Shown here piece by piece: positions 8,821 through 37,493 of a DNA stretch of 40,625 bases. Origin of the DNA: a virus; the UHGV virus genome UHGV-1366629; one strand, written 5' to 3'. The number at the start of each line of letters is the position of its first letter. Within the stretch, counting starts at the first letter, position 1. The translations under genes and the position numbers were made by a program. The notes beneath the pieces were generated by a model. The model saw only the letters and a program-made list of their open reading frames with translations. It made no database searches and was not told the DNA's origin.

Positions 8821-8850
8821 TTGACACACGACTTGCCACTATGTTATAGT
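8821..8850 (+). promoter_or_regulatory. early rightward promoter TTGACA-18-TATAGT overlapping operator-like motif copy 3 (8822-8838)
   Basis: ttgacacacgacttgccactatgttatagt, 35 nt upstream of ATG 8885. Confidence 0.6.
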
Positions 8851-9100: not shown

Positions 9101-10861
9101 TTGGAAAAATTTGACAACCCACTAGACGAGTTTACAACTGAAGTTGAAGTAATGAGCGCTGAAGAAATGGAAAAATTTAGAGAAAAACTCAGAAACGAAC
9201 AATCACAACTATTATCAACCGAACCAATTGAAATACCCGAACATTTAGAACAAGAGGGCGAGAAACAACTTGCTGAATACGAATATAATCGAAGTCATTT
9301 AACAGTAAATATTTTAGACTATCACAGTCCTGAATACCCTGAACAACTATTTAAAGACTTAAAACGAACGGGAATTATTAAATATAATGAAAATAAAAAA
9401 ACAGGTGAATTACTACCTTATATTGATGACGTATCGTTACTAGGTCAAATGATAGCTGAACAAGGCCATTTAATGTATAATGACGAAACAGGACTGGTTA
9501 TTTACGAACCTGAAAATCTAATATGGAAAATTGACAAGAAAGCAATTGAGAAATTAGTAACGGGTGCAATTGTCAACCCATTATTAAGAGCCGTTAAAAT
9601 ACCAATCAAGCAACAAAACGAACTAATTACGGCCATTGAGCGACAAGTTACCTATGTTACACCAAGCGAAAACCCTTTTGTAGGCCAACGTGAATATATT
9701 ATTCCATTTACTAAAACATTTAACGTACACACAAATGAATTTCAAGAGGCCAAAGGCGATGACTATGTTTTGGGAAGACTGAAACACACACCTATTAAAT
9801 ATGACCTAAGCGAAAAACAACCCTTTGAGGACTGGTTAGAGTTCTTGTTAGGTGACAGTAAACGAACATTTTTAGAATTTTTAGGACTATCATTCTTTAA
9901 TAAGGCAAGTCTTTCTCAATCGGCATTAGTATCGGTAGGGAACACTTTACAAGGCATTAGTGACCATGGGAACGGAAAATCTGAGGTTCAATTAGTGGTA
10001 AAACGCTGTTTTGAAACAATCGGAAAAGACTTACAAGCCGAGGTATCACTTGCAGACATTACTAGTCAAAGTCCTGAAACAAAACTAATGCCTTTAGTAG
10101 GTGCTTTAGTGAACTTTGATGATGATGTTAAAACGAACTATTTAGAAAACATTGAGTCACTTAAAAAATTAATCACTGGTCAAGCTCAACAAAAAGCCCG
10201 TAACTTATACAGCGATGGCATGATGTTCCAGAACAAAGCGAACTTTTGGTTAAATGCTAACCAATTACCCCAACTAAGTTCACGAGATGGAGCAACCGAG
10301 CGGCGATTAGATTTGTTGGTATTTCAGAACAATATGAGAGATGTGGAAAATCAAAAAAAATCACTTGAAATTTACGACTACAAAGAGAAATTACTAGGCA
10401 AAGATGACACTGACATACGTAAATTAATTTATTTAGCCATTCAAACAGCTCGTAATAAGTGGTATGATGAAACAAAAGGCCATTTCAACCAAAATCAGTT
10501 ATATCAATCAGAAACAGCGTTACGACTAAAAGGCGAATGGCAAACAGAAAACAACCCAGTAAAACAGTTCTTAAACGATAGCGATTATATTATGACGAAT
10601 AACGAAAGCGATTTTGTAAACCGTAGTGACTTATATAATGACTTTAAAGAATGGTGGGCGGAAAACAACTCGGCTAAAGTATTGAAACACGCTTCATTTA
10701 GAAAACTGGTTTATCATGAACTAGAATTGAAGCAAGTAAAAGGTAGATTGAACAATGGCGACATTGAGAAAAAACACCAACTAGGCAAAGTACGAGTATT
10801 TTATGGAATCAAACATTTAGAAAACGGCATACCTGAATCAGATAAAGAACTACCATTTTAA
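9101..10861 (+). CDS. replicative helicase, phage/plasmid primase P4-family C-terminal / D5-like SF3 helicase domain (TTG start)
   Basis: P-loop ISDHGNGKSE; downstream block KKLITGQAQQKARNLYSDGMMFQNKANFWLNANQLPQLSSRDGATERRLDLLVF resembles the P4-family primase C-terminal motif (lTGgD.i.ar...N.lP...D.a..RR..iipF). Confidence 0.7.
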   Translation: MEKFDNPLDEFTTEVEVMSAEEMEKFREKLRNEQSQLLSTEPIEIPEHLEQEGEKQLAEYEYNRSHLTVNILDYHSPEYPEQLFKDLKRTGIIKYNENKKTGELLPYIDDVSLLGQMIAEQGHLMYNDETGLVIYEPENLIWKIDKKAIEKLVTGAIVNPLLRAVKIPIKQQNELITAIERQVTYVTPSENPFVGQREYIIPFTKTFNVHTNEFQEAKGDDYVLGRLKHTPIKYDLSEKQPFEDWLEFLLGDSKRTFLEFLGLSFFNKASLSQSALVSVGNTLQGISDHGNGKSEVQLVVKRCFETIGKDLQAEVSLADITSQSPETKLMPLVGALVNFDDDVKTNYLENIESLKKLITGQAQQKARNLYSDGMMFQNKANFWLNANQLPQLSSRDGATERRLDLLVFQNNMRDVENQKKSLEIYDYKEKLLGKDDTDIRKLIYLAIQTARNKWYDETKGHFNQNQLYQSETALRLKGEWQTENNPVKQFLNDSDYIMTNNESDFVNRSDLYNDFKEWWAENNSAKVLKHASFRKLVYHELELKQVKGRLNNGDIEKKHQLGKVRVFYGIKHLENGIPESDKELPF

Positions 10862-11164: not shown

Positions 11165-11214
11165 GAAAAAAGTTGACTAAAAGGGTTGACTTTTTTCTTT
11201 TTATTGATTATTAT
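11165..11214 (+). terminator. hairpin + T-run terminator with embedded -35 boxes, followed by -10 TATTAT (terminator-promoter cassette)
   Basis: gaaaaaagttgac-taaaagg-gttgacttttttc ttttt; ttgact(11186)-17-tattat(11209). Confidence 0.55.
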
Positions 11215-11247: not shown

Positions 11248-11712
11248 ATGAAATTCACAACACAACGAGAAATTAGAGAAACAGCGGGACAACGCAAGAA
11301 ACACGTCACTCAATTCACACCAGTAGAAAGACACGACTTAGAAAAAGTAACTCGCAAAGTGTTACGAAAATGGTTGAAACATGGTATTGCCACAACGAAA
11401 CACTTGAAAAATAAAGTAATTAATCACGAAACACAATTCTCATATCGCTTAACAATGGAAACAATGCTAAACCATGACATTATTGAGTATAATGTGACTG
11501 GCTCAGATAGACGGGTTGTATTACGTTCCAAAACACCTCATTCAATTATGTCAGTTGGTAATTTAGGGGTGCAATGTATTGTAATTTCTATAAACAGTGG
11601 AAAAGTCGTTACTAGTTACATTAATTTATTAGAGGACGACCATAAAACACTAGATACTAGACGATATGACAAACATTTAAAAATTAATTTAGAAAATGTG
11701 TTGACAAGATAA
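11248..11712 (+). CDS. hypothetical protein, basic
   Basis: 154 aa ORF with RBS agagaggaag. Confidence 0.6.
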   Translation: MKFTTQREIRETAGQRKKHVTQFTPVERHDLEKVTRKVLRKWLKHGIATTKHLKNKVINHETQFSYRLTMETMLNHDIIEYNVTGSDRRVVLRSKTPHSIMSVGNLGVQCIVISINSGKVVTSYINLLEDDHKTLDTRRYDKHLKINLENVLTR

Positions 11713-11729
11713 AAAAAGTTTGATATAGT
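11701..11729 (+). promoter_or_regulatory. sigma-A promoter TTGACA-17-TATAGT with conserved leader TAATTCATAAGATAAAGGGAGG
   Basis: ttgacaagataaaaaaagtttgatatagt. Confidence 0.65.
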
Positions 11730-11760
11730 TAATTCATAAGATAAAGGGAGGAATTAAACA

Positions 11761-11963: not shown

Positions 11964-11992
11964 TTGACAAGTTCAGCCCCAACTGATATACT
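11964..11992 (+). promoter_or_regulatory. sigma-A promoter TTGACA-17-TATACT (spacer forms a GGGG..CCCC hairpin)
   Basis: ttgacaagttcagccccaactgatatact; leader gcataagataaagagagg. Confidence 0.65.
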
Positions 11993-12025
11993 AAGTGCAT
12001 AAGATAAAGAGAGGAAGTAATTAAC

Positions 12026-13039: not shown

Positions 13040-13380
13040 TGATTGAACATATCATACTTGGTTATTTTGTGGTTACTTGGGTAGTCCTATGTTCATGGTT
13101 ATGGTTTGCTAAGGAGTCATTTGACGGCCTTGAGTTGTTCTTTGCTTTATTCCTATGGCCTTTGACTGTTCCACTAAGTCTAGCTCATGATTATGTACGC
13201 TATCGATTTAATATCAAGGTAAAACGTTTTAAAGAGTATCCTGAACTAACTAAAATACTATTTATTAAAAACGCTGGGTTTAGAAACACATTAACCTATA
13301 AATATTGGTTCGTTTTTAGTCCTAGAAAAATAATTTTGAAAAAATATTATAAAACGCTTGACAAAATGGAAAAAGAGTAG
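13039..13380 (+). CDS. hypothetical membrane protein (2 predicted TM helices)
   Basis: ATG 13039 overlapping upstream stop (TAATG), RBS ggagg; IILGYFVVTWVVLCSWLW...LFFALFLWPLTVPL. Confidence 0.55.
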   Translation: MIEHIILGYFVVTWVVLCSWLWFAKESFDGLELFFALFLWPLTVPLSLAHDYVRYRFNIKVKRFKEYPELTKILFIKNAGFRNTLTYKYWFVFSPRKIILKKYYKTLDKMEKE

Positions 13381-13386
13381 TATATT
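13358..13386 (+). promoter_or_regulatory. sigma-A promoter TTGACA-17-TATATT with leader AAATATATCAAATAGAGAAAGAGG (duplicated at 14199)
   Basis: ttgacaaaatggaaaaagagtagtatatt. Confidence 0.6.
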
Positions 13387-13418
13387 AAATATATCAAATA
13401 GAGAAAGAGGTTAGAGAA

Positions 13419-14192
13419 ATGGAAACGTATATCAAATTAGTAAAGGTGTTCCCCGTAGATATTGCAAATGGTCACTATGTAAATGACGTGTTGAAAGTAG
13501 TTCGTTACTTTAGCGCTGGTTGTGTTGCTGAAGATAAGCAAGGGCGAGAAACACCGTTTAAAGCTGAGCAGTATGAAACATTGCCAAAATATAAGATAGT
13601 AGAGGATAAAAACGATAATTACGCTTTGCATGGTTTTGCAATTGGGGCGATTGTTCATTTACTTGACACCAATACCGTTAACCCAAAATATAAGAGAATG
13701 TTCGGTAAGGGCGTTCATGGTCAATTAACCACTCAGTTAGTACATGAAAATTTATTAGAACCAGTACACGACCAAAAGGAGGAAAAACAAGTGAAATATA
13801 CGGAAAAAGACATTAAAGAGGGTATGCAATTACGTTGTACTGATGGAGGTCGCTCTTGTTTTTGGGAAGTTGGTAAAATTTATACAGTAACTAAACTCAA
13901 TAATGGTCAAATTGGTTTTCACGGCGATGAAATGTTGGGTAGAACCAGCCGCAATGCAAAAGATATTGCTAACTATTTAAACGGCGAATTGAACGCAAAA
14001 TTTGAACTGGTAGGTCAAACGAATGACCTTAAAACGAAAGTAGAGGCTAAAATTGAAGAGTTACGCAAAGAAAAATACCATTTACATGATAAACGAGAAC
14101 GATTATTAAAACAAGAAACTGCTTTGAATGATAAAATTATTCGATTGAGTAAGGCTTTAGCGGCGGTTGACGTTTTACAAGAATTTGAATAA
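13419..14192 (+). CDS. paralog 1 of tandem family: barrel module (IKEGMQLRCTDGG...W.VGKIY.V) + C-terminal coiled coil
   Basis: 257 aa; module shared with 14260..15351 and degenerate copy in 15428..16258. Confidence 0.6.
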   Translation: METYIKLVKVFPVDIANGHYVNDVLKVVRYFSAGCVAEDKQGRETPFKAEQYETLPKYKIVEDKNDNYALHGFAIGAIVHLLDTNTVNPKYKRMFGKGVHGQLTTQLVHENLLEPVHDQKEEKQVKYTEKDIKEGMQLRCTDGGRSCFWEVGKIYTVTKLNNGQIGFHGDEMLGRTSRNAKDIANYLNGELNAKFELVGQTNDLKTKVEAKIEELRKEKYHLHDKRERLLKQETALNDKIIRLSKALAAVDVLQEFE

Positions 14193-14198
14193 AAAGTG

Positions 14199-14227
14199 TT
14201 GACAAAATAAAAAGGTTGCGGTATATT
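14199..14227 (+). promoter_or_regulatory. sigma-A promoter TTGACA-17-TATATT, duplicate of 13358 promoter/leader
   Basis: ttgacaaaataaaaaggttgcggtatatt + aaatatatcaaatatagaaagagg. Confidence 0.6.
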
Positions 14228-14259
14228 AAATATATCAAATATAGAAAGAGGTAATGAAC

Positions 14260-15351
14260 ATGAAAGAGTATAAGAACAAAGAAATTAAAGAGGGTATGCA
14301 ATTACGATGTACAGATAACGGCGGTTGGGAGCATTGGACTGTAGGCAAGGTTTATATCGTATTTAAAAACATGATGGGACTCTTGGTTATTCAGTCAGAC
14401 ACAGGCGGACAACGCAATGTAACTGATATTGTTCAATATTTAAATGGTGTAGCAAAAGCAAAATTTGAATTATTAAATGAGGAGGATAATAAAAATATGT
14501 ATACAGTAGGGGACTTAGTTAAGATTAATGACGATTTACGGGCTGGGTGTGAATATAACGTTTATTGTAACGATGACATGGAAACATACCGAGGTAAAAA
14601 AGCCGTGATTGTTGATGTTCATACTGATAAAACTCTATGGGAGAATGAAAGAAAAATTTACAAATTGCAAGATATGAATGGTGAAACTATCGAGTGGTCA
14701 TTTACTGATGATATGTTTAAAATCACTACAAACACTAACGAACCACCATTTAAGGTAGGCGATACAGTACGAGTATTAAACAATGCCACTTTAGCAAGTA
14801 AGGCCGATGGTAATTTTTATAGAACTGGTGATATTGATGTTGTCGGATATGTTGAATGTTACAAAAATTCAAAAGGCGGTCGTATTCGATTAGGTACACA
14901 TGGTTCAGCTAACTGGATACATTTTGACATGATTGAATTAGTTGAGGAAGCGCCAGAAAAACTAGGATACTTCAAATGTACAGCTGGTTCAATGTTTTGG
15001 TCTAAAGGAAAAATTTACCCCGTTTCATATGACGAAAACGCAAAATTATACACAATTGCGGACGATGACGGCGATGAACGAGCAGAGCCAACACTTGAGT
15101 TATTAATTCAATACGCCACTCATAAAATTAACGCCACTATGATTTATATGAATGACACCAAAGAGGATAAAGAGGCTAATAAAGACATTAATAAAGTAAG
15201 TGACTTGTTACAGACTAAAATTGATGAATTAACAACCCAAGCCGAACACCTATTTAAAAAACGTGACCGATTAGATGAACACGCTAAAAATTTAAATGCA
15301 AAAGCTCGCCGATTGGAAGAAGTACGAGATGAATTGAATAAATTTAAATAA
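14260..15351 (+). CDS. paralog 2: two copies of barrel module plus KOW/SH3-like VGDxV(K/R)(I/V) repeats and C-terminal coiled coil
   Basis: start at 2nd ATG (14260) on RBS spacing; KEIKEGMQLRCTDNGGWEHWTVGKVY; second copy FKCTAGSMFWSKGKIYPV. Confidence 0.6.
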   Translation: MKEYKNKEIKEGMQLRCTDNGGWEHWTVGKVYIVFKNMMGLLVIQSDTGGQRNVTDIVQYLNGVAKAKFELLNEEDNKNMYTVGDLVKINDDLRAGCEYNVYCNDDMETYRGKKAVIVDVHTDKTLWENERKIYKLQDMNGETIEWSFTDDMFKITTNTNEPPFKVGDTVRVLNNATLASKADGNFYRTGDIDVVGYVECYKNSKGGRIRLGTHGSANWIHFDMIELVEEAPEKLGYFKCTAGSMFWSKGKIYPVSYDENAKLYTIADDDGDERAEPTLELLIQYATHKINATMIYMNDTKEDKEANKDINKVSDLLQTKIDELTTQAEHLFKKRDRLDEHAKNLNAKARRLEEVRDELNKFK

Positions 15352-15356
15352 AATGC

Positions 15357-15385
15357 TTGACAACTTGTGGGCTAGGTGATATACT
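15357..15385 (+). promoter_or_regulatory. sigma-A promoter TTGACA-17-TATACT
   Basis: ttgacaacttgtgggctaggtgatatact. Confidence 0.65.
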
Positions 15386-15427
15386 TAGTCCATGAGTTAA
15401 ATATAAAAAGAAAGAGGGAATTTAGAA

Positions 15428-16258
15428 ATGAGTAAAAAATTAGAAGTAGGTCAATATGTACGAGTAAAACAATTAACACCTGAGGAGCAATATGAGGGTA
15501 TTTATGTAACTCAGCACATGGCTAATTTAAGCGGAACAATTCAAAAAATTACTAACTTTATGGCGAGTCACACTGGTATTGCTATTGATGGTAGAATTTC
15601 GTTAACTAATGGTTGCGGCTATAATTGGTCTAAAGAAATGTTTACCTTAATTGAGGACTATGCCGACTTACAAGAGTTTGACGTTATTGAATGCCTTGAC
15701 AATGACCAAGATTCACGTTGGTTCACAATTGAGAAAGAATATACTGTTTTAGAAAATAACTATGGTCAATTATGTATTTATGATGATGAGGGCGACCACT
15801 GGGAATTAGAGGACGTTTTCCAAGACGATTATACTTTTAAATTTAAAGAAGTTTCTGTTCCCGTTGTAAATAATTCAGCTATTAAGTTATTAGAGGCAAA
15901 ACTTGAAAATAAACGTAGTGAGTTGCACATTAAAAAACAAGAGGTAAGTCGTATGAATGATATTATCACTGATTTAGAGGACGATATTTCAAAACAAAGA
16001 GTAAAACTTACCCAACTAAAACAAGATAAAGCGGAAAAGATGACTACAGGAGCGTTAGAGGTAGGCGAAAAATTCAACATGTACCGAGGAAACAACGAGG
16101 CTAAATATATGGTTATTAGTATGCCAAGCGGTGACTTTGGAATTTATAACCTACGTAGTCGAAAAGTGTTAGATATGAGTGTTGAAACATATGAAGAAGT
16201 TAAAAACTATTTTACTGAGTTATACCAAGATGATAAAATTAAAATTATCAAACAATAA
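15428..16258 (+). CDS. paralog 3 (divergent): N-terminal KOW/SH3-like VGQYVRV, barrel module, central coiled coil
   Basis: 276 aa; ECLDNDQDSRWFTIEKEYTV resembles the C..D...W...GK.Y.V module. Confidence 0.55.
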   Translation: MSKKLEVGQYVRVKQLTPEEQYEGIYVTQHMANLSGTIQKITNFMASHTGIAIDGRISLTNGCGYNWSKEMFTLIEDYADLQEFDVIECLDNDQDSRWFTIEKEYTVLENNYGQLCIYDDEGDHWELEDVFQDDYTFKFKEVSVPVVNNSAIKLLEAKLENKRSELHIKKQEVSRMNDIITDLEDDISKQRVKLTQLKQDKAEKMTTGALEVGEKFNMYRGNNEAKYMVISMPSGDFGIYNLRSRKVLDMSVETYEEVKNYFTELYQDDKIKIIKQ

Positions 16259-16271
16259 AGGAGTTAATAAA

Positions 16272-16568
16272 ATGGGAGTAACTATTTCAAGTAAAGCATA
16301 CCAACAATTACAAGAGAAATATGACAAGTTGCAAGAGGAATTTGAGAAATATAAACAACGTGATACCCCATTGAAACTAGGTACTGTGTTACTATGGAAA
16401 CCATTTGACGTTAAATACATGGTGATTATCCACCGACATGAGTTGTTTTTAGTTAATGTTAGTGGTACTGCTGATAACGGTCAGTTCTTCATTTCTAAAG
16501 GCTTACCTGAAAACACCACTTTAACCGAACTAGAAAGAGTAACAGGTGAAGAGTTTACACTTAGTTAA
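16272..16568 (+). CDS. hypothetical protein (coiled-coil N-terminus)
   Basis: ATG 16272 with RBS aaggag; 98 aa. Confidence 0.55.
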   Translation: MGVTISSKAYQQLQEKYDKLQEEFEKYKQRDTPLKLGTVLLWKPFDVKYMVIIHRHELFLVNVSGTADNGQFFISKGLPENTTLTELERVTGEEFTLS

Positions 16569-16656: not shown

Positions 16657-16854
16657 ATGGGAAAAGCTGAGAACTTAATTCAGGAGATTTTAGCAAGTGA
16701 ATATGTAAAACAACACCAAGCGGAGGGCGCAATTAAACAATTAGACACAACTATAGCTCAACTCATGAGGGAAAAAAGAGAACGAGCTAAAGAATTACAA
16801 CGAATTGACACTACCATTGCTCAATATGAAACTCAATTAAAGGAGAATGAATAA
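16657..16854 (+). CDS. hypothetical small coiled-coil protein
   Basis: 65 aa; RBS gaaaggacgg. Confidence 0.55.
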   Translation: MGKAENLIQEILASEYVKQHQAEGAIKQLDTTIAQLMREKRERAKELQRIDTTIAQYETQLKENE

Positions 16855-19192: not shown

Positions 19193-19221
19193 TTGACAAG
19201 TTGGTTATTTCATGATATACT
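19193..19221 (+). promoter_or_regulatory. sigma-A promoter TTGACA-17-TATACT with leader TTAATTCATAAGTTAAGAGGAGG
   Basis: ttgacaagttggttatttcatgatatact. Confidence 0.65.
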
Positions 19222-19252
19222 TAATTCATAAGTTAAGAGGAGGAAACAAATT

Positions 19253-19459
19253 ATGAAACCATATTACGTAGAATTAGAAAACACAATTGAGGAATTAGAA
19301 GAATTATTCATTACAAGATACATGGAACTAATGGAATGTGACAGAGAATGGGCTATGGAAGTTCAAAAAACGGAATGTAACGCACCACATACTAAAGAAG
19401 ATGTGGAATTAATTCTAAAACAACTATGTTCATTATGTGGGGTTGATTACACATGCTAA
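19253..19459 (+). CDS. hypothetical small acidic protein
   Basis: 68 aa. Confidence 0.55.
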   Translation: MKPYYVELENTIEELEELFITRYMELMECDREWAMEVQKTECNAPHTKEDVELILKQLCSLCGVDYTC

Positions 19460-19773
19460 GTCAAAAAGAAATACTACTGGATAACCACTATCCAGTAGTA
19501 TTAAAATATTTAGTGTCTGAACTAAAGAAAGCAGACAAGAAACGAGATAATGCAACTAAGAAACTAATGGATATGAACGAAAGAGAAAACATGCAATCGC
19601 ATACAACTCAAAGGTACTGGAAAACAGTAGCTAATGTTGAATTTTATGAAAAGGAAGTTCGTAAACTGGTTTCAGAAATTAAAACAATTATTGATATTTA
19701 TGACATTAAAAATAAAATGCACCAAGAAAGATTTTATTTTATAAAAAGTATTGACAAACTTCTAAAACCTTGA
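19453..19773 (+). CDS. hypothetical protein
   Basis: 106 aa. Confidence 0.55.
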   Translation: MLSQKEILLDNHYPVVLKYLVSELKKADKKRDNATKKLMDMNERENMQSHTTQRYWKTVANVEFYEKEVRKLVSEIKTIIDIYDIKNKMHQERFYFIKSIDKLLKP

Positions 19774-19779
19774 TATAGT
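19751..19779 (+). promoter_or_regulatory. sigma-A promoter TTGACA-17-TATAGT with leader TAATTCATAAGATAAAGGGAGG
   Basis: ttgacaaacttctaaaaccttgatatagt. Confidence 0.65.
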
Positions 19780-19809
19780 TAATTCATAAGATAAAGGGAG
19801 GTTTTAAAA

Positions 19810-19884
19810 ATGGCAGTATTCACATTAGTATTTATGGTTGTGGCTTTCGGTATCTTGTTCGGAACGATGAAATATTTTGACTAA
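19810..19884 (+). CDS. tiny hydrophobic peptide (24 aa), not in the ORF track
   Basis: strong RBS aagggagg then ATG 19810; MAVFTLVFMVVAFGILFGTMKYFD. Confidence 0.5.
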   Translation: MAVFTLVFMVVAFGILFGTMKYFD

Positions 19885-19951: not shown

Positions 19952-20119
19952 ATGAGATTTGCAAAATTTAGTTTGAGTTTAGTGATTGGTTTGATTATTC
20001 TAGTGTCGTTTATGATTGCAATGTTGAAAGTGTTTGCTGTTCCAATTATTGTAATATTGATTGCAGTTGGTGCTTTCGTACTAGTTCAAAAAGGGAATGA
20101 TGACAATGGAAAAGAGTAA
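19952..20119 (+). CDS. small membrane protein (55 aa, 2 predicted TM), not in the ORF track
   Basis: RBS agaaagagg; MRFAKFSLSLVIGLIILVSFMIAMLKVFAVPIIVILIAVGAFVLVQKGNDDNGKE. Confidence 0.5.
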   Translation: MRFAKFSLSLVIGLIILVSFMIAMLKVFAVPIIVILIAVGAFVLVQKGNDDNGKE

Positions 20120-20918
20120 AATTGTTCAGTATTATAAACAAGGTATTGCATTAAGAAGACTTACAAAAATGGGTAAAGTACCAGCTTACAAGGGTAATTT
20201 TAAGCAAGGCGACTCATTAAGTGACTTATTGAAATGGGACGGTAACATAGCTATCCTAACTGGTAAAGTGAGCGGTTTAGTATGTATTGACGTAGATAGA
20301 CACACAACAAAAAATGGAGATGTAATTGATGGGGTAGTTTCATTGCGTGATTTTATGAAAAACAATGGCTTGAAATTACCTCAAACAAGAGTAGTAAAAA
20401 GCCCTAACGATGGGTTACACTATTACTATAAATTACCTGAAACATATTTCAATACTAAATTCAAGCCAAAATCTGACTTAATTAAAGGCGTTGACTTTAG
20501 AAACCATGGTCAATTTATGGTGGCCGAGGATAGCATTATTCCTAACGAAAACGGTGAAAAAACTTATTACATGGTTGTAAAAGATATTCCATTTAGTGAG
20601 ATTCCTGAAGTGCCTGAGTGGGTTATTGAGTTATACTCCAAAGGTGAAGACGAGGGTAAGGAAAACGACCAAGTTATGACCTTTATTGCTACTAAAATGA
20701 ATGAGTGGACGAAAGGGGCGCCTGAGGGTAATAGAAACAACTGGTTAACTGCTCAAGTGGGTTTTCTAATCGGTCAAAGGTTACCTATTAACAAAGTGGC
20801 TATATGGGCTAATGTGATTAATAATAATTTCATTCACCCAAAATTAGACCAAGAAGAAGTAAATGCAATGATTAATTCTCTTTATAATAGTGAAAAATAT
20901 AAAAGAAAAGGTGAGTAA
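20097..20918 (+). CDS. DNA primase, bifunctional primase-polymerase (Prim-Pol) N-terminal domain type (start 20097, 20100 or 20106)
   Basis: NIAILTGKVSGLVCIDVDRH ... SPNDGLHYYY signature of Prim-Pol domain. Confidence 0.7.
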   Translation: MMTMEKSKIVQYYKQGIALRRLTKMGKVPAYKGNFKQGDSLSDLLKWDGNIAILTGKVSGLVCIDVDRHTTKNGDVIDGVVSLRDFMKNNGLKLPQTRVVKSPNDGLHYYYKLPETYFNTKFKPKSDLIKGVDFRNHGQFMVAEDSIIPNENGEKTYYMVVKDIPFSEIPEVPEWVIELYSKGEDEGKENDQVMTFIATKMNEWTKGAPEGNRNNWLTAQVGFLIGQRLPINKVAIWANVINNNFIHPKLDQEEVNAMINSLYNSEKYKRKGE

Positions 20919-25687: not shown

Positions 25688-25736
25688 AGAAAGTTGAGTG
25701 TAAAAGCTTGACTTTCTTTTTTATATGTGATATTAT
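25688..25736 (+). terminator. terminator-promoter cassette: hairpin with embedded -35, T-run, TATTAT
   Basis: agaaagttgag-tgtaaaag-cttgactttct ttttt; ttgact(25708)-17-tattat(25731). Confidence 0.55.
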
Positions 25737-25803
25737 ATAAGTGTGATAGGGTTAAACCTTATGGAAAATGAGTACGTCACAATATAAGGAAAGAGGGGAA
25801 CAT

Positions 25804-28095
25804 ATGATTCAATTAACAGATAAAGAGAAAGCGGCAGTAAAAGACTATTTAGATTTAGTTAACAACTTGAGAGGTAGACCAAGTGACAATAAGGGCTTGA
25901 CTAATGGTAGGCAGTCATTGCAGTTAATCAGTAAAGAACCACATACCTCTAAAGCTGGTAATGAGATGTTAAAAGTCAAATGGCGCAATATTGACACAGG
26001 AGCTAATGATTTTGTATATTTGATGAATGGTAAAAAGGCATATAAGAACACTAAGTGTATTGAAGTTGGCGACGTGTATGAGGCTATCGTTGGTGGCGTT
26101 GGTGGTTTCGTACAAGTAACACCTTTCAAAAAAATAGGGTCTGCTGAATTACCAACCGAAAATAAAATGTGTGCTAAACATATTATCGCTTACGATATTG
26201 AGGTATTTAAATATAATTTCTCATTCGTTTATATTGATATTTTAAGCGGTAAAAAATTAGAGATTGAAGACGATTTACCATTACTTGAAAAGTTTCTAAA
26301 AGCTCATGAAAATGATATATTTGTTGGGTATAATAATGTTGGATATGATAAACACATTAGAAAAGGTATTCGTGACCAAAAAGACCCCTATAAAATAAGT
26401 AAGGAAATCATTGACGGGGATAAGAAAAATAGTAAAGTGTGGAAAATGTACAACGGTCGTATAGATTCATTATGTGAAATTGACTTGTATCAAGATAACG
26501 CTGGTTTCAGTTTGAAAGAACATAATGCCTTTAATGGGTTAGCTATTCAAGAGTCTGAGGTTGACTTTGATATTGACCGAGAGTTAACCACTAGCGAGAA
26601 AAAAGACAACATGAAATACAATACGGCCGATGTTGAGGGTACTGTGGTTAGATTCCTAAAAATGTTAGGTTCATTAAAAACTAAGGCAATGTTATTAGAA
26701 ATGTATAATTTAGATTATACTTGGTTAAGTAAAACAAATGCTTCATTAATTGCTGAAATTCTTAAAGCTAAACACCATGCTGACCGAGGTGACTTATTTG
26801 ACAAATACCCTAAACCTGACTGGATAAGATTCGACAATGAGGACATTCTAAAACAGGTCAATGAGTGGGTGCTTGAATTAGATGAATTACCACGGGTAAC
26901 TAAGACTAAAGACGGCGAGAAATATGAAACAACTGACTTATCATATACTTTACAATTGCGGGACTTAGAAATTAAACTAGGTAGTGGTGGTGTTCATGGG
27001 GCAGTTGCCAATTATATTAAACAAAATACGGTAATATATCAATCTGACGTTGGTTCACTATATCCTTGGACGATGGTATTACATGACTATATTAGTAGAA
27101 ACATTCCAGAAAAATATAGACACTTTTACCAAGACATTTTAGAGGCTAGAATGAAGTATAAGGCCGCTGGGGATAAAGCAAGAGAGAAAGCCATGAAGTT
27201 GGTACTTAACACAATGTACGGCGTATTACGTGCTAAATTTAATGCTTTATTTGACCCTCGTCAAGCTATTTTAATTAATATCACTGGTCAATTGGCAATG
27301 TTAGACTTAGCTGACAAGATTCAACCTTATGGCTATATCTCAGCAATGAATACCGATTCTATCAACTATGAGCCATTTAGTGAAGAGGACGAGGCTAAAA
27401 TTGAAGAGGTTAAAAAAGATTGGTGTAAGCGGTCAGGTTATACGTTAGACACTGATATTTTAACAGACATTGCCCAGCGTGATATTAATAACTATATTTG
27501 TCGCTTTGATAATGGTGAGATTAAAACGAAAGGCGCTATTTCAATGGGTGGCGGTGTTAAATGGTCTAAAGCGATTGTAATGAATGCTGTTAAAGAGTAT
27601 TTCATGAATAATATTGAACCTGAGGAATATATTAAAAATGCTACTGATTTACGTGATTTTCAAATTATTAGTAAGACTGGTTACACTTTCAAAGAAACGA
27701 GAGCTTACATTAATGAAGAGAATGAAGAGGACTATACTAAAATTCAAAAAGTTAACCGTTCATTTGCTGTTAAAAAAGGGGTTGGTCAACCTATTAAAAT
27801 TCGTAAGTTTAAGTTAGGTGAATTACCTGAAGAGCCAAGTGTTGACAGTGATAAGTATGAGGACTGGTTAGAGTTAGCGACTGAATATGCTGAGATTGGT
27901 GAAGAGGCCTACGGATATAAACACGGTCAAATAGTTAAAGGGTTACCTAATGAACCTGATAATTATATCATTGATAACAATAGCATAGACTTCTTAAATA
28001 TTTCAAGAAATGATATTGATGATGATTATTATATTTCTGAAGCTAAACGAATGATTGCCCAATATGAGAACGGAACGGGTGATTTAGAGGAATAA
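25804..28095 (+). CDS. family B DNA polymerase with 3'-5' exonuclease domain (ORF opens at 25768; ATG 25804 has the better RBS)
   Basis: Exo I YDIE, Exo II YNNVGYD, Pol A SDVGSLYPW, Pol B KLVLNTMYG, Pol C MNTDSINYE. Confidence 0.85.
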   Translation: MIQLTDKEKAAVKDYLDLVNNLRGRPSDNKGLTNGRQSLQLISKEPHTSKAGNEMLKVKWRNIDTGANDFVYLMNGKKAYKNTKCIEVGDVYEAIVGGVGGFVQVTPFKKIGSAELPTENKMCAKHIIAYDIEVFKYNFSFVYIDILSGKKLEIEDDLPLLEKFLKAHENDIFVGYNNVGYDKHIRKGIRDQKDPYKISKEIIDGDKKNSKVWKMYNGRIDSLCEIDLYQDNAGFSLKEHNAFNGLAIQESEVDFDIDRELTTSEKKDNMKYNTADVEGTVVRFLKMLGSLKTKAMLLEMYNLDYTWLSKTNASLIAEILKAKHHADRGDLFDKYPKPDWIRFDNEDILKQVNEWVLELDELPRVTKTKDGEKYETTDLSYTLQLRDLEIKLGSGGVHGAVANYIKQNTVIYQSDVGSLYPWTMVLHDYISRNIPEKYRHFYQDILEARMKYKAAGDKAREKAMKLVLNTMYGVLRAKFNALFDPRQAILINITGQLAMLDLADKIQPYGYISAMNTDSINYEPFSEEDEAKIEEVKKDWCKRSGYTLDTDILTDIAQRDINNYICRFDNGEIKTKGAISMGGGVKWSKAIVMNAVKEYFMNNIEPEEYIKNATDLRDFQIISKTGYTFKETRAYINEENEEDYTKIQKVNRSFAVKKGVGQPIKIRKFKLGELPEEPSVDSDKYEDWLELATEYAEIGEEAYGYKHGQIVKGLPNEPDNYIIDNNSIDFLNISRNDIDDDYYISEAKRMIAQYENGTGDLEE

Positions 28096-36906: not shown

Positions 36907-37493
36907 CTAATGTTTACTATTTTTCTTTTCAATTTTCTCACGTATTTTATTTTCGTAACTTGTATATGCTCCGTGAGCTAAAGCAATATAAATTATTTCA
37001 GTTGCGGTTACATCAGGGTTTAATAACCAAGTGTCAGGGACACCGTTATAATCTCGCATTTGAGCTATCCAGCCTATAACAGTGTCTGACTCAGGTACTT
37101 CGAACTTAATACCACCTAGGCCTTTTTTCCCTTGGCCTTTCCCAATTTAGAAACAGCTTGAATATATTTATCAGCCGCTTTCGGGTCTAACATAGCTGTA
37201 TAAATTTGACCAGCTTCAGCCAAGTCGAATAGTAAGCCGTCCTCTTCGTCAAAGAACTCCTCAAACGTTAAATAGTCTTTCATGTTAGCCTGACGATAAG
37301 CCACATAAACAGCCGCCGCCATGTTTTTAAATTCAATTGCTTGTGTGTCCCCTTTAGCGTTAACAGCGAATGAGAAAACTTCATTTACTTCAGGAAAATC
37401 ACGAGCGATAATCATACATTTCATAGGGTTGTAACCTAATTGAATTGAAACTTCCTCACCGTTCAATAATTGTAATTTTGTAATTTTTGCCAT
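36907..37493 (-). CDS. tail assembly chaperone -1 frameshift fusion product (gpGT-like)
   Basis: slippery G GGA AAA AAG at comp(37120..37129); -1 frame stays open for 70 codons to TAG at comp(36907..36909). Confidence 0.6.
37116..37493 (-). CDS. tail assembly chaperone (gpG-like)
   Basis: 125 aa, between major tail protein and TMP; ends KLGKAKGKKA over slippery GGGAAAAAAG. Confidence 0.75.
   Translation of the reverse strand: MAKITKLQLLNGEEVSIQLGYNPMKCMIIARDFPEVNEVFSFAVNAKGDTQAIEFKNMAAAVYVAYRQANMKDYLTFEEFFDEEDGLLFDLAEAGQIYTAMLDPKAADKYIQAVSKLGKAKGKKA

Follow-up and report, generated by a model that had tools for sequence, protein, structure and literature searches.

Enterococci, which are major drug-resistant pathogens, are among the targets of phage therapy; therapeutic phages are limited by defence systems encoded on enterococcal plasmids and genomic islands. 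Of the counter-defence proteins of Enterococcus phages, TifA is the only characterised one that our literature search found. This protein (Orf65 of phage phi47) binds and inactivates the type IV restriction enzymes EF_B0059, GC1503 and BrxU, as demonstrated experimentally (PMC11322646). It is small and acidic, and its N-terminal SH3-like domain carries the adaptive, specificity-changing substitution L32F (PMC11322646). Gp54 of phage Bas11 (PDB ID 9axb) is a small barrel bound directly by the defence protein CapRelSJ46, for which it is the direct trigger (PMC11578894). DUF7244 is a member of the Pfam SH3 clan, and standalone SH3 proteins of this kind adjoin the lysis cassettes of Drexlerviridae (PMC13164509). 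Here we compare with these systems a tandem trio of genes, g1 (13419–14192), g2 (14260–15351) and g3 (15428–16258), from the virus genome UHGV-1366629. The whole analysed stretch, 40,625 bp long, is further referred to as the window, and positions refer to it unless another contig is named; all features of the trio lie on the plus strand. As argued below from sequence comparison, the trio encodes chains of SH3-like barrels that are exchanged as whole modules, the N-terminal barrel of TifA comes from the same module pool, and a counter-defence role of the trio is tentatively proposed.

The window is essentially the complete genome of a lytic Enterococcus siphophage. Its nearest deposited relative is Enterococcus phage vB_CECAV_A40 (further phage A40; host E. 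cecorum, 40,480 bp), which is 91.5% identical to it across 85% of the region 13300–16300, and the remoter DNA matches are Efquatrovirus-like phages. The three open reading frames (ORFs) are present as given in a preliminary description of this DNA, which had been made from the sequence alone; the start of g2 at 14260 agrees with the spacing from the ribosome-binding site and with the orthologues, which begin with MKEY. The trio is placed between the primase and the DNA polymerase in the non-structural plus-strand arm (approximately 8.8–28.1 kb). This arm encodes a primase/helicase (9101–10861), a prim-pol-like protein (20097–20918), a metal-dependent hydrolase and a DNA polymerase (25768–28095), with numerous small genes without an assigned role between them. 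The large structural genes are on the minus strand, elsewhere in the window.

All three proteins belong to the family phrog_3523 (profile E-values of 3.6e-31 for g1, 1.1e-47 for g2 and 7.2e-10 for g3). The same profile is matched by a 210-amino-acid (aa) protein of phi47, by P0004 and P0089, and by the Kochikohdavirus protein P0037. The homologues share a plan in which one to five small barrels, separated by short acidic linkers, are followed by a conserved leucine zipper. The modules usually end with F/Y-E-L/I-V-E-E-E. A barrel type frequent in the relatives, further called type C, has the consensus KYAKITK...LEIGKxYKIV...YFISxxQYELVEK. The family had been known as an unnamed PHROG; no description was found of the beads-on-zipper design, the cassette shuffling or the module sharing with TifA, and the literature on DUF6501 and DUF7244, on Efquatrovirus accessory genes and on Enterococcus counter-defence yielded no study of phrog_3523.

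The module common to the trio, further called module A, had been described as a unit of about 65 aa present once in g1, twice in g2 and in a degenerate form in g3. BLASTP, a hidden Markov model (HMM) built from a two-sequence seed and profile comparison all confirm the module, and the last two confirm the copy numbers. In pairwise BLASTP, residues 126–203 of g1 align with residues 3–77 of g2 (46% identity, 66.6 bits, E = 8e-17), residues 98–245 of g1 with residues 212–354 of g2 (26.5% identity, E = 2e-9; the second module and the helix), and residues 80–132 of g3 with residues 8–59 of g2 (32% identity, E = 5e-5). The seed HMM located module A at residues 124–203 of g1, 1–77 and 239–300 of g2, and 85–122 of g3. 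Profile–profile comparison of these copies (g1A, g2A1, g2A2 and g3A) gave probabilities of 99.0–99.8%.

In an alignment of 15 copies of module A, a Tyr, a Cys and a second Tyr are invariant, and the Trp and the Gly-Lys of the GKxYxV hairpin are nearly so. In the AlphaFold2 model built from this alignment, a helix and a final strand come after a small beta-barrel (predicted local distance difference test score, pLDDT, 82; predicted template modelling score, pTM, 0.72). The five-stranded barrel superposes on solved SH3-like domains and hence has the SH3-like small beta-barrel fold; Tudor and PWWP domains are also named in connection with it. Its top solved structural neighbour is the SH3 domain of RecD, as it is for the standalone beta-barrel Gp54 of Bas11 (PMC11578894). 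Gp54 differs in being a six-stranded single domain from phages of Gram-negative bacteria that has no coiled coil, and its sequence similarity to module A is below threshold. A Foldseek search of predicted viral structures with module A returned uncharacterised proteins of Enterococcus siphophages, myophages and podophages (E-values from 1e-7 to 1e-5) and, weakly, DUF7244 proteins.

Module A falls outside any well-known structural or housekeeping family, in line with the preliminary description, since it belongs to phrog_3523 and its other relatives are DUF7244 (weak) and DUF6501 (distant), all without a known function. A sequence-profile search of PDB with module A gave nothing meaningful (best E-value 0.23), and no Pfam model scored above threshold in g1–g3. 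DUF6501 had no match in g1–g3 at the Pfam gathering threshold, and DUF7244 matched five of the 15 copies of module A below the 27-bit cutoff (best E-value 0.0029). Sub-threshold Pfam and NCBIfam coiled-coil matches of the trio (Yuri_gagarin, Laminin_II, KfrA_N, prefoldin, FlbB and others) were rejected as compositional. The VGDxV repeats, previously called KOW/SH3-like, are SH3-like; the KOW part of the name did not hold (PF00467: E = 0.63, 10.4 bits with a cutoff of 22.3). Moreover, these repeats are not uniform, as module B2 of g2 is related to module A in profile comparison, and module B1 of g2 and the N-terminal module of g3 form a separate type.

The three proteins combine these modules differently. 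In g1, an N-terminal region (aa 1–123; 13419–13787) is found in very close relatives only and has no relative among modules A, B and C in profile comparison; it is followed by module A, an SH3-like barrel with a helix (aa 124–203; 13788–14027), and by the C-terminal leucine zipper (aa 204–257 and the stop codon; 14028–14192), with VLLLLLVE in the d positions. The g2 protein starts with module A1 (aa 1–77; 14260–14490), which is supported by BLASTP, the seed HMM and profiles and has pLDDT of 84–94 in the full-length model. Then come module B1 (aa 78–156; 14491–14727), which is of the type forming the N-terminal domain of IME-EF1 gp47 and is missing from the orthologue in phage A40; module B2, a divergent relative of module A (aa 157–235; 14728–14964; hhalign probability 97–98%); and module A2, a divergent module A (aa 236–305; 14965–15174; hhalign 99%, pLDDT about 80). 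The C-terminal zipper of g2 (aa 306–363 and the stop codon; 15175–15351), with ILLLLLLL in the d positions, is modelled as a single helix at residues 310–362. In g3, the N-terminal module (aa 1–76; 15428–15655) lies under positions 78–132 of the phrog_3523 profile and is probably of the B1 type; it aligns weakly with the B1-type N-terminal modules of IME-EF1 gp42 and gp47 (HMM independent E-values of 1e-4 and 1e-3). A degenerate module A, 32% acidic (aa 77–142; 15656–15853), is followed by an internal helical, coiled-coil segment (aa ~143–205; 15854–16042) and a 71-aa C-terminal domain (aa 206–276 and the stop codon; 16043–16258), which is found only in close relatives and in the g2–g3 fusions P0017 and P0018.

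AlphaFold2 gives a barrel for module A and a helix for the C-terminus of g2, in agreement with the preliminary description. In the full-length g2 model A1 and A2 are confident, and B1 and B2 are poor. Foldseek with this model returned from PDB generic tandem SH3, Tudor and Mib-repeat arrays only, with TM-scores below 0.2; given the low confidence of two modules, it serves as a consistency check only.

The C-terminal helices of g1 and g2 are long, uninterrupted and free of Pro and Gly, with hydrophobic residues recurring at heptad a and d positions, as in leucine zippers. They are homologous (hhalign 99.6%), as proposed earlier, and the motif FxKRDRL...NLNAKARRLEE of the zipper is retained throughout the family. 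The further claim that each protein ends in a coiled coil stands for g1 and g2 and fails for g3, where the helical segment is internal. This segment also lacks Pro and Gly and has heptad periodicity; with 65% hydrophobic a/d positions it is weaker than the zippers, it has only weak matches to coiled-coil families, and no relation to the g1 and g2 zippers was detected by BLASTP or hhalign.

The module recurs in other phages. By tblastn, module A was found in 121 deposited genomes of phages, of which 118 are Enterococcus phages. The family is carried by siphophages of about 40 and 57 kb, by Herelleviridae myophages of about 140 kb and by podophages of about 18 kb, where the gene sits at the genome end. 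A single-module query of a bacterial genome collection found no relatives, and hence there is no evidence for the family in bacterial chromosomes or prophages from this search.

Module content was compared with four relatives whose flanking DNA is 92–96% identical to that of the window. Whole modules were gained and lost among them, with breakpoints exactly at the module borders. In phage A40 (L001) g2 lacks B1 and A2 and has 209 aa; in the metagenome contig L008 g2 lacks A2 (282 aa) and g1 is wholly absent; in the metagenome contig L006 g2 has an extra C module inserted (427 aa); and in the metagenome contig L009 a C module replaces A2 (375 aa). Fusions of g2 with g3 (P0017, P0018), g1 with g2 (P0019) and g1 with g3 (P0208) also occur. 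Pairwise ratios of nonsynonymous to synonymous substitution rates (dN/dS) for the trio are 0.22–0.55, the value for the primase being 0.04, and amino acids in the trio change faster than in most neighbouring genes. Since these ratios are 0.22–0.55, the genes are maintained by selection; positive selection was rejected, as pairwise dN/dS is below 1 everywhere. As judged from these alignments, the family varies chiefly by cassette exchange rather than by accelerated substitution.

The same cassettes lead to TifA. In the phi47 genome (L004) the gene at 37068–37475 is the 65th annotated coding sequence; its product has 135 aa, 21.5% acidic residues and Leu at position 32. Its homologue in phage SDS2 is 84.4% identical and has Phe at this position, in agreement with the published substitution (PMC11322646). 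The gene at 37068–37475 can thus be securely identified as tifA by its sequence. In a single phmmer pass, the N-terminal domain of TifA (aa 1–62) matched barrel type C of the family with up to 39.8 bits; the matches include P0004, P0005, P0006, P0009 and P0011, which are g2 orthologues with a C module inserted. These five are 87–91% identical to g2 over the part aligned by BLAST, which for P0004–P0006 comprises 63–64% of g2. Most TifA homologues from Saphexavirus match residues 58–131 of TifA only and carry another N-terminal domain, of the B1 type. One of them is gp47 of IME-EF1 (L011, 2204–2725), a member of the TifA family whose N-terminal barrel is of the B1 type. This type also links g2 to the TifA family. 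In the profile phrog_7488, TifA covers positions 52–144 and residues 82–128 of g2 cover positions 4–56 (E = 7e-5); an HMM of the B1 modules from g2 orthologues matches residues 17–64 of gp47 with 18.9 bits. Hence g2 contains a B1-type barrel like that at the N-terminus of gp47.

The N-terminal barrel of TifA can thus be swapped as a cassette, type C being found in phi47 and SDS2 and type B1 in IME-EF1, and it comes from the family's module pool. By this comparison, TifA itself is a product of domain swapping, a point absent from the paper describing TifA. Members with the other architecture occur in the same phages. IME-EF1 gp42, labelled "cytidine deaminase", consists of B1, A and a zipper, the same layout as in g3, and in phi47 and SDS2 the 210-aa family member (module A, a second module-A-like barrel and a zipper) is encoded a few genes from tifA. 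In common with the trio, TifA is an Enterococcus phage protein that is encoded in the non-structural arm and contains a barrel from the same pool; it differs in its length of 135 aa, its two-domain organization with a conserved globular C-terminal domain, and the lack of a zipper.

Each gene of the trio has its own promoter. The three promoters match 11 of the 12 consensus positions each, and their −35 hexamers begin at 13358, 14199 and 15357, 6–7 nucleotides (nt) past the preceding stop codon. The g1 promoter (13358–13386) is TTGACA-17-TATATT and pairs with the g2 promoter (14199–14227), which begins 7 nt after the g1 stop codon; the g3 promoter (15357–15385) is TTGACA-17-TATACT with a TG extension. 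The promoter and leader regions of g1 and g2 (13358–13418 and 14199–14259) had been called near-identical copies. They are indeed duplicated, and overall only 47 of 61 positions are identical; near-identity is confined to a 32-nt block from the −10 box to the ribosome-binding site (13380–13411 and 14221–14252), identical at 31 of 32 positions. The pattern of this block occurs at these two sites of the window only, against a chance expectation of 0. The structural part of the preliminary description, namely repeated small barrels with a coiled coil in tandem paralogues and a promoter duplicated together with the gene, is thus borne out. The early and high expression that it names is presumed from the promoter consensus alone.

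We tentatively propose, rating the proposal at rather less than an even chance, that the trio proteins are multivalent binders neutralising host defence proteins. The argument for a counter-defence role is that the trio shares barrel types with TifA, a proven restriction inhibitor, and the barrel of Bas11 Gp54 provides a related precedent for a phage barrel bound by a defence protein (PMC11578894). Each barrel would serve as a protein-binding unit for a host defence protein, e.g. a GmrSD-type type IV restriction enzyme, a nuclease or a sensor. The zipper would oligomerise the chain, so that several barrels act jointly and gain avidity, and, with several barrels per zipper-joined chain, one polypeptide might hold several specificities. 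Tandem duplication of a gene with its own promoter, combined with cassette shuffling and recombination in the linkers, would re-sort the specificities as host defences change. Transcribed from the consensus promoters by host RNA polymerase, the genes could be expressed as soon as infection starts, without phage factors. A wider scheme, possible and rather doubtful, is a combinatorial library of SH3-like inhibitor barrels exchanged between the TifA C-terminal and the zipper chassis, the zipper forms being multivalent hubs against several immune proteins. The phages would then own a repertoire of modular counter-defence binders, re-sorted on population time scales, in place of inhibitors with one purpose each. 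If these proteins do block host nucleases, they would resemble Ocr of phage T7 as early, non-essential proteins binding and blocking such enzymes; the analogy is functional only, as the trio has neither DNA mimicry, nor uniform negative charge, nor any relation to Ocr in sequence or fold.

Were this proposal true, each module would be a candidate inhibitor with separable specificity, and host range might be predictable from the module content or engineerable through it. The family would also be a clear case in nature of binders that owe their diversity to shuffled domains and not to point mutations.

The earlier guess of an anti-defence function thus gains indirect support, as two barrel types serve as alternative N-terminal domains of TifA and modules are gained and lost; several observations weigh against it. 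Neither the C-terminal domain of TifA (aa ~58–131) nor a TifA-like ORF was found in the window by BLASTP against ORFs of at least 45 aa at an E-value of 0.05. As no protein of the trio has this domain, the trio stands outside the TifA family. The C-type barrel, which carries residue 32 (phrog_27436), was absent from g1–g3 when searched with a clean HMM, the best domains scoring below 2 bits. The B1 link has modest scores of 24 and 19 bits. Further, direct hhalign comparison of module A with the N-terminal barrel of TifA gave a probability of 18.8%, at which direct homology was rejected. Their connection is transitive, through the DUF6501-like repeats, whose profiles match those of modules A, B2 and C at 97.2%, 94% and 83.8%, respectively. 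An earlier jackhmmer convergence of module A and the TifA barrel was due to drift through these repeats. Module A and the C-type barrel are nevertheless probably one superfamily, judging by the transitive profile matches. With two to five modules and a coiled coil, the trio proteins are built differently from TifA, and they are less acidic. The content of Asp and Glu is 15.2% in g1, 17.4% in g2 and 18.1% in g3 (about 21% in TifA), with isoelectric points (pI) of 7.7, 5.3 and 4.8. The substitution rates correspond to relaxed purifying selection and not to positive selection. Finally, the polar residues of the zipper are invariant across very different phages, which argues for one conserved partner and would fit a host-takeover target equally well. 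Two ideas were tried and dropped along the way: residues 1–56 of g1, which by eye resembled a C-type TifA-like barrel, were rejected by the clean module C HMM and by the null result of hhalign, and the composition gives no support to uniformly acidic DNA mimics.

The invariant zipper lends itself to another explanation, in which the proteins are host-takeover adaptors, their barrels and zipper being directed at a conserved housekeeping target in Enterococcus and not at defence proteins. We consider it unlikely, though a serious candidate. The K, R and L residues of the zipper motif are invariant across phages of all three tail types, and consensus host-type promoters in front of genes of the non-structural arm suit such a role. 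Suggestions as to the targets, also doubtful, are RNA polymerase, the replisome, and cell-division or metabolic proteins, with host functions being redirected or shut off. The presence and absence of cassettes in near-identical phages and the loss of g1 in L008 would be odd if the target were invariant, and the family shares modules with one characterised protein only, which acts against restriction.

SH3-, Tudor- and KOW-like barrels bind nucleic acid in helicases and ribosomal proteins. The trio proteins could accordingly be scaffolds whose barrels bind DNA or RNA and whose zipper dimers organise phage replication, which we regard as improbable. In its favour are the position of the locus between the primase and DNA polymerase genes, the basic character of the zipper segments (pI about 9) and a borderline Pfam match of the orthologue P0012 to KfrA_N (25.5 bits with a cutoff of 26.1). 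This match, however, is limited to the coiled-coil part of the profile, and the barrels, with pI of 4.0–6.8, are neutral to strongly acidic, only g3A reaching 32% of Asp and Glu, which is poor for nucleic acid binding. Gain and loss of single modules would be unusual for a replication factor, and a close relative does without g1.

Accessory status, cassette variation, own promoters and wide horizontal spread in Enterococcus phages would fit superinfection exclusion or competition between phages likewise, with the trio binding proteins of rival phages or mobile elements from the start of infection; the trio sequences have no membrane anchor or signal peptide and no known exclusion protein has these modules, so that this role appears very improbable. 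Cell-wall binding of the SH3b type, aiding lysis or adsorption, can be given next to no credence: the full-length g2 model weakly matches SH3 arrays of hydrolases and endolysins in Foldseek (YrvJ, E = 2e-4; phiSM101 endolysin, E = 0.017) and standalone DUF7244 SH3 proteins occur beside Drexlerviridae lysis cassettes (PMC13164509), but the global TM-scores of these matches are 0.1–0.18, the trio has no signal peptide, transmembrane or hydrophobic N-terminal segment and no Pfam match to SH3_3, SH3_5 or another SH3b model, and the locus is in the plus-strand replication arm with the large structural genes on the minus strand (the lysis genes were not located).

Public labels of the family members are "hypothetical", "tail length tape-measure protein" and "cytidine deaminase". 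The tape-measure label occurs in the records of phiSHEF4 (gp50/gp51), vB_EfaS-271, Ef6.1, phiNASRA1 and PBEF19, and the deaminase label in those of IME-EF1 (gp42), IME-EF4, AL2, Entf1, ECP3 and SP-QS1 (gp64). In most of these records the functional name is borne by a family member; phiSHEF4 gp50/gp51 is a gene adjoining one. Pfam supported neither functional label in the family members scanned, among them g1–g3, phiSHEF4 gp46 and PBEF19 P0037. The functional names look like propagated annotation errors, and the present assignment corrects these recurring misannotations for many deposited Enterococcus phage genomes.

A search of 1.84 billion cluster representatives with the profile of module A returned 361 proteins. 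Some of these are large, with lengths of up to 1,941 aa and as many as 12 copies, and the large ones pass the Pfam threshold for DUF6501. Such DUF6501 repeat proteins differ from the trio in having no zipper, another architecture and shorter repeats of about 50–55 aa. P0075 (1,890 aa; L010, 4878–10550), P0096 and P0115 are giant metagenomic proteins with 11–12 tandem DUF6501-like barrels of about 50 aa; the setting of P0075 is phage-like, with a ClpB-like AAA protein, TPR proteins, an HNH endonuclease and a uracil-DNA glycosylase. Their relatives P0046 (by Pfam scan) and P0062 (inferred from its sequence) have a C-terminal domain that Pfam names dATP/dGTP diphosphohydrolase N-terminal.

Directly after g3 the window encodes g4 (16272–16568, plus strand), a 98-aa protein without its own promoter. 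It has a heptad-rich N-terminal segment and no PHROG match; a guessed relation to the C-terminal domain of g3 was rejected after comparison. The gene is present in phage A40, L008 and L009 and missing from L006, and is therefore a further variable member of the locus. A protein of 65 aa (16657–16854, plus strand) is a predicted coiled coil, again without a PHROG match. No other gene of this stretch comes near it in constraint, dN being 0 in comparison with all four relatives and dS 0.05–0.32.

At least four other plus-strand promoters of the window, at 11701–11760, 11964–12025, 19193–19255 and 19751–19815 (also at 8821 and 19891), have a common design. It consists of AAAAAG(T/G)(G/A)-TTGACAA, a 17-nt spacer ending with TG, TATA(G/C)T and, further downstream, (T/A)A(A/G)T(T/G)CATAAG(A/T)TAA(A/G)(G/A)G(G/A)AGG. 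The shared sequence suggests a family of promoter-plus-leader cassettes ahead of several genes of the early arm, and the promoter–leader pair of g1 and g2 is a subtype apart from it. Long palindromes followed by T-runs, with TTGACT-like boxes inside, are found at 11165–11197 and 25688–25717 (plus strand), e.g. GAAAAAAGTTGACTAAAAGGGTTGACTTTTTTC. They may be combined terminators and promoters or operator-like sites between transcription units. One more palindrome, at 19470–19502 (minus strand), forms a perfect 15-bp stem (AATACTACTGGATAG...CTATCCAGTAGTATT) flanked by two strong plus-strand promoters, and could be regulatory or origin-associated.

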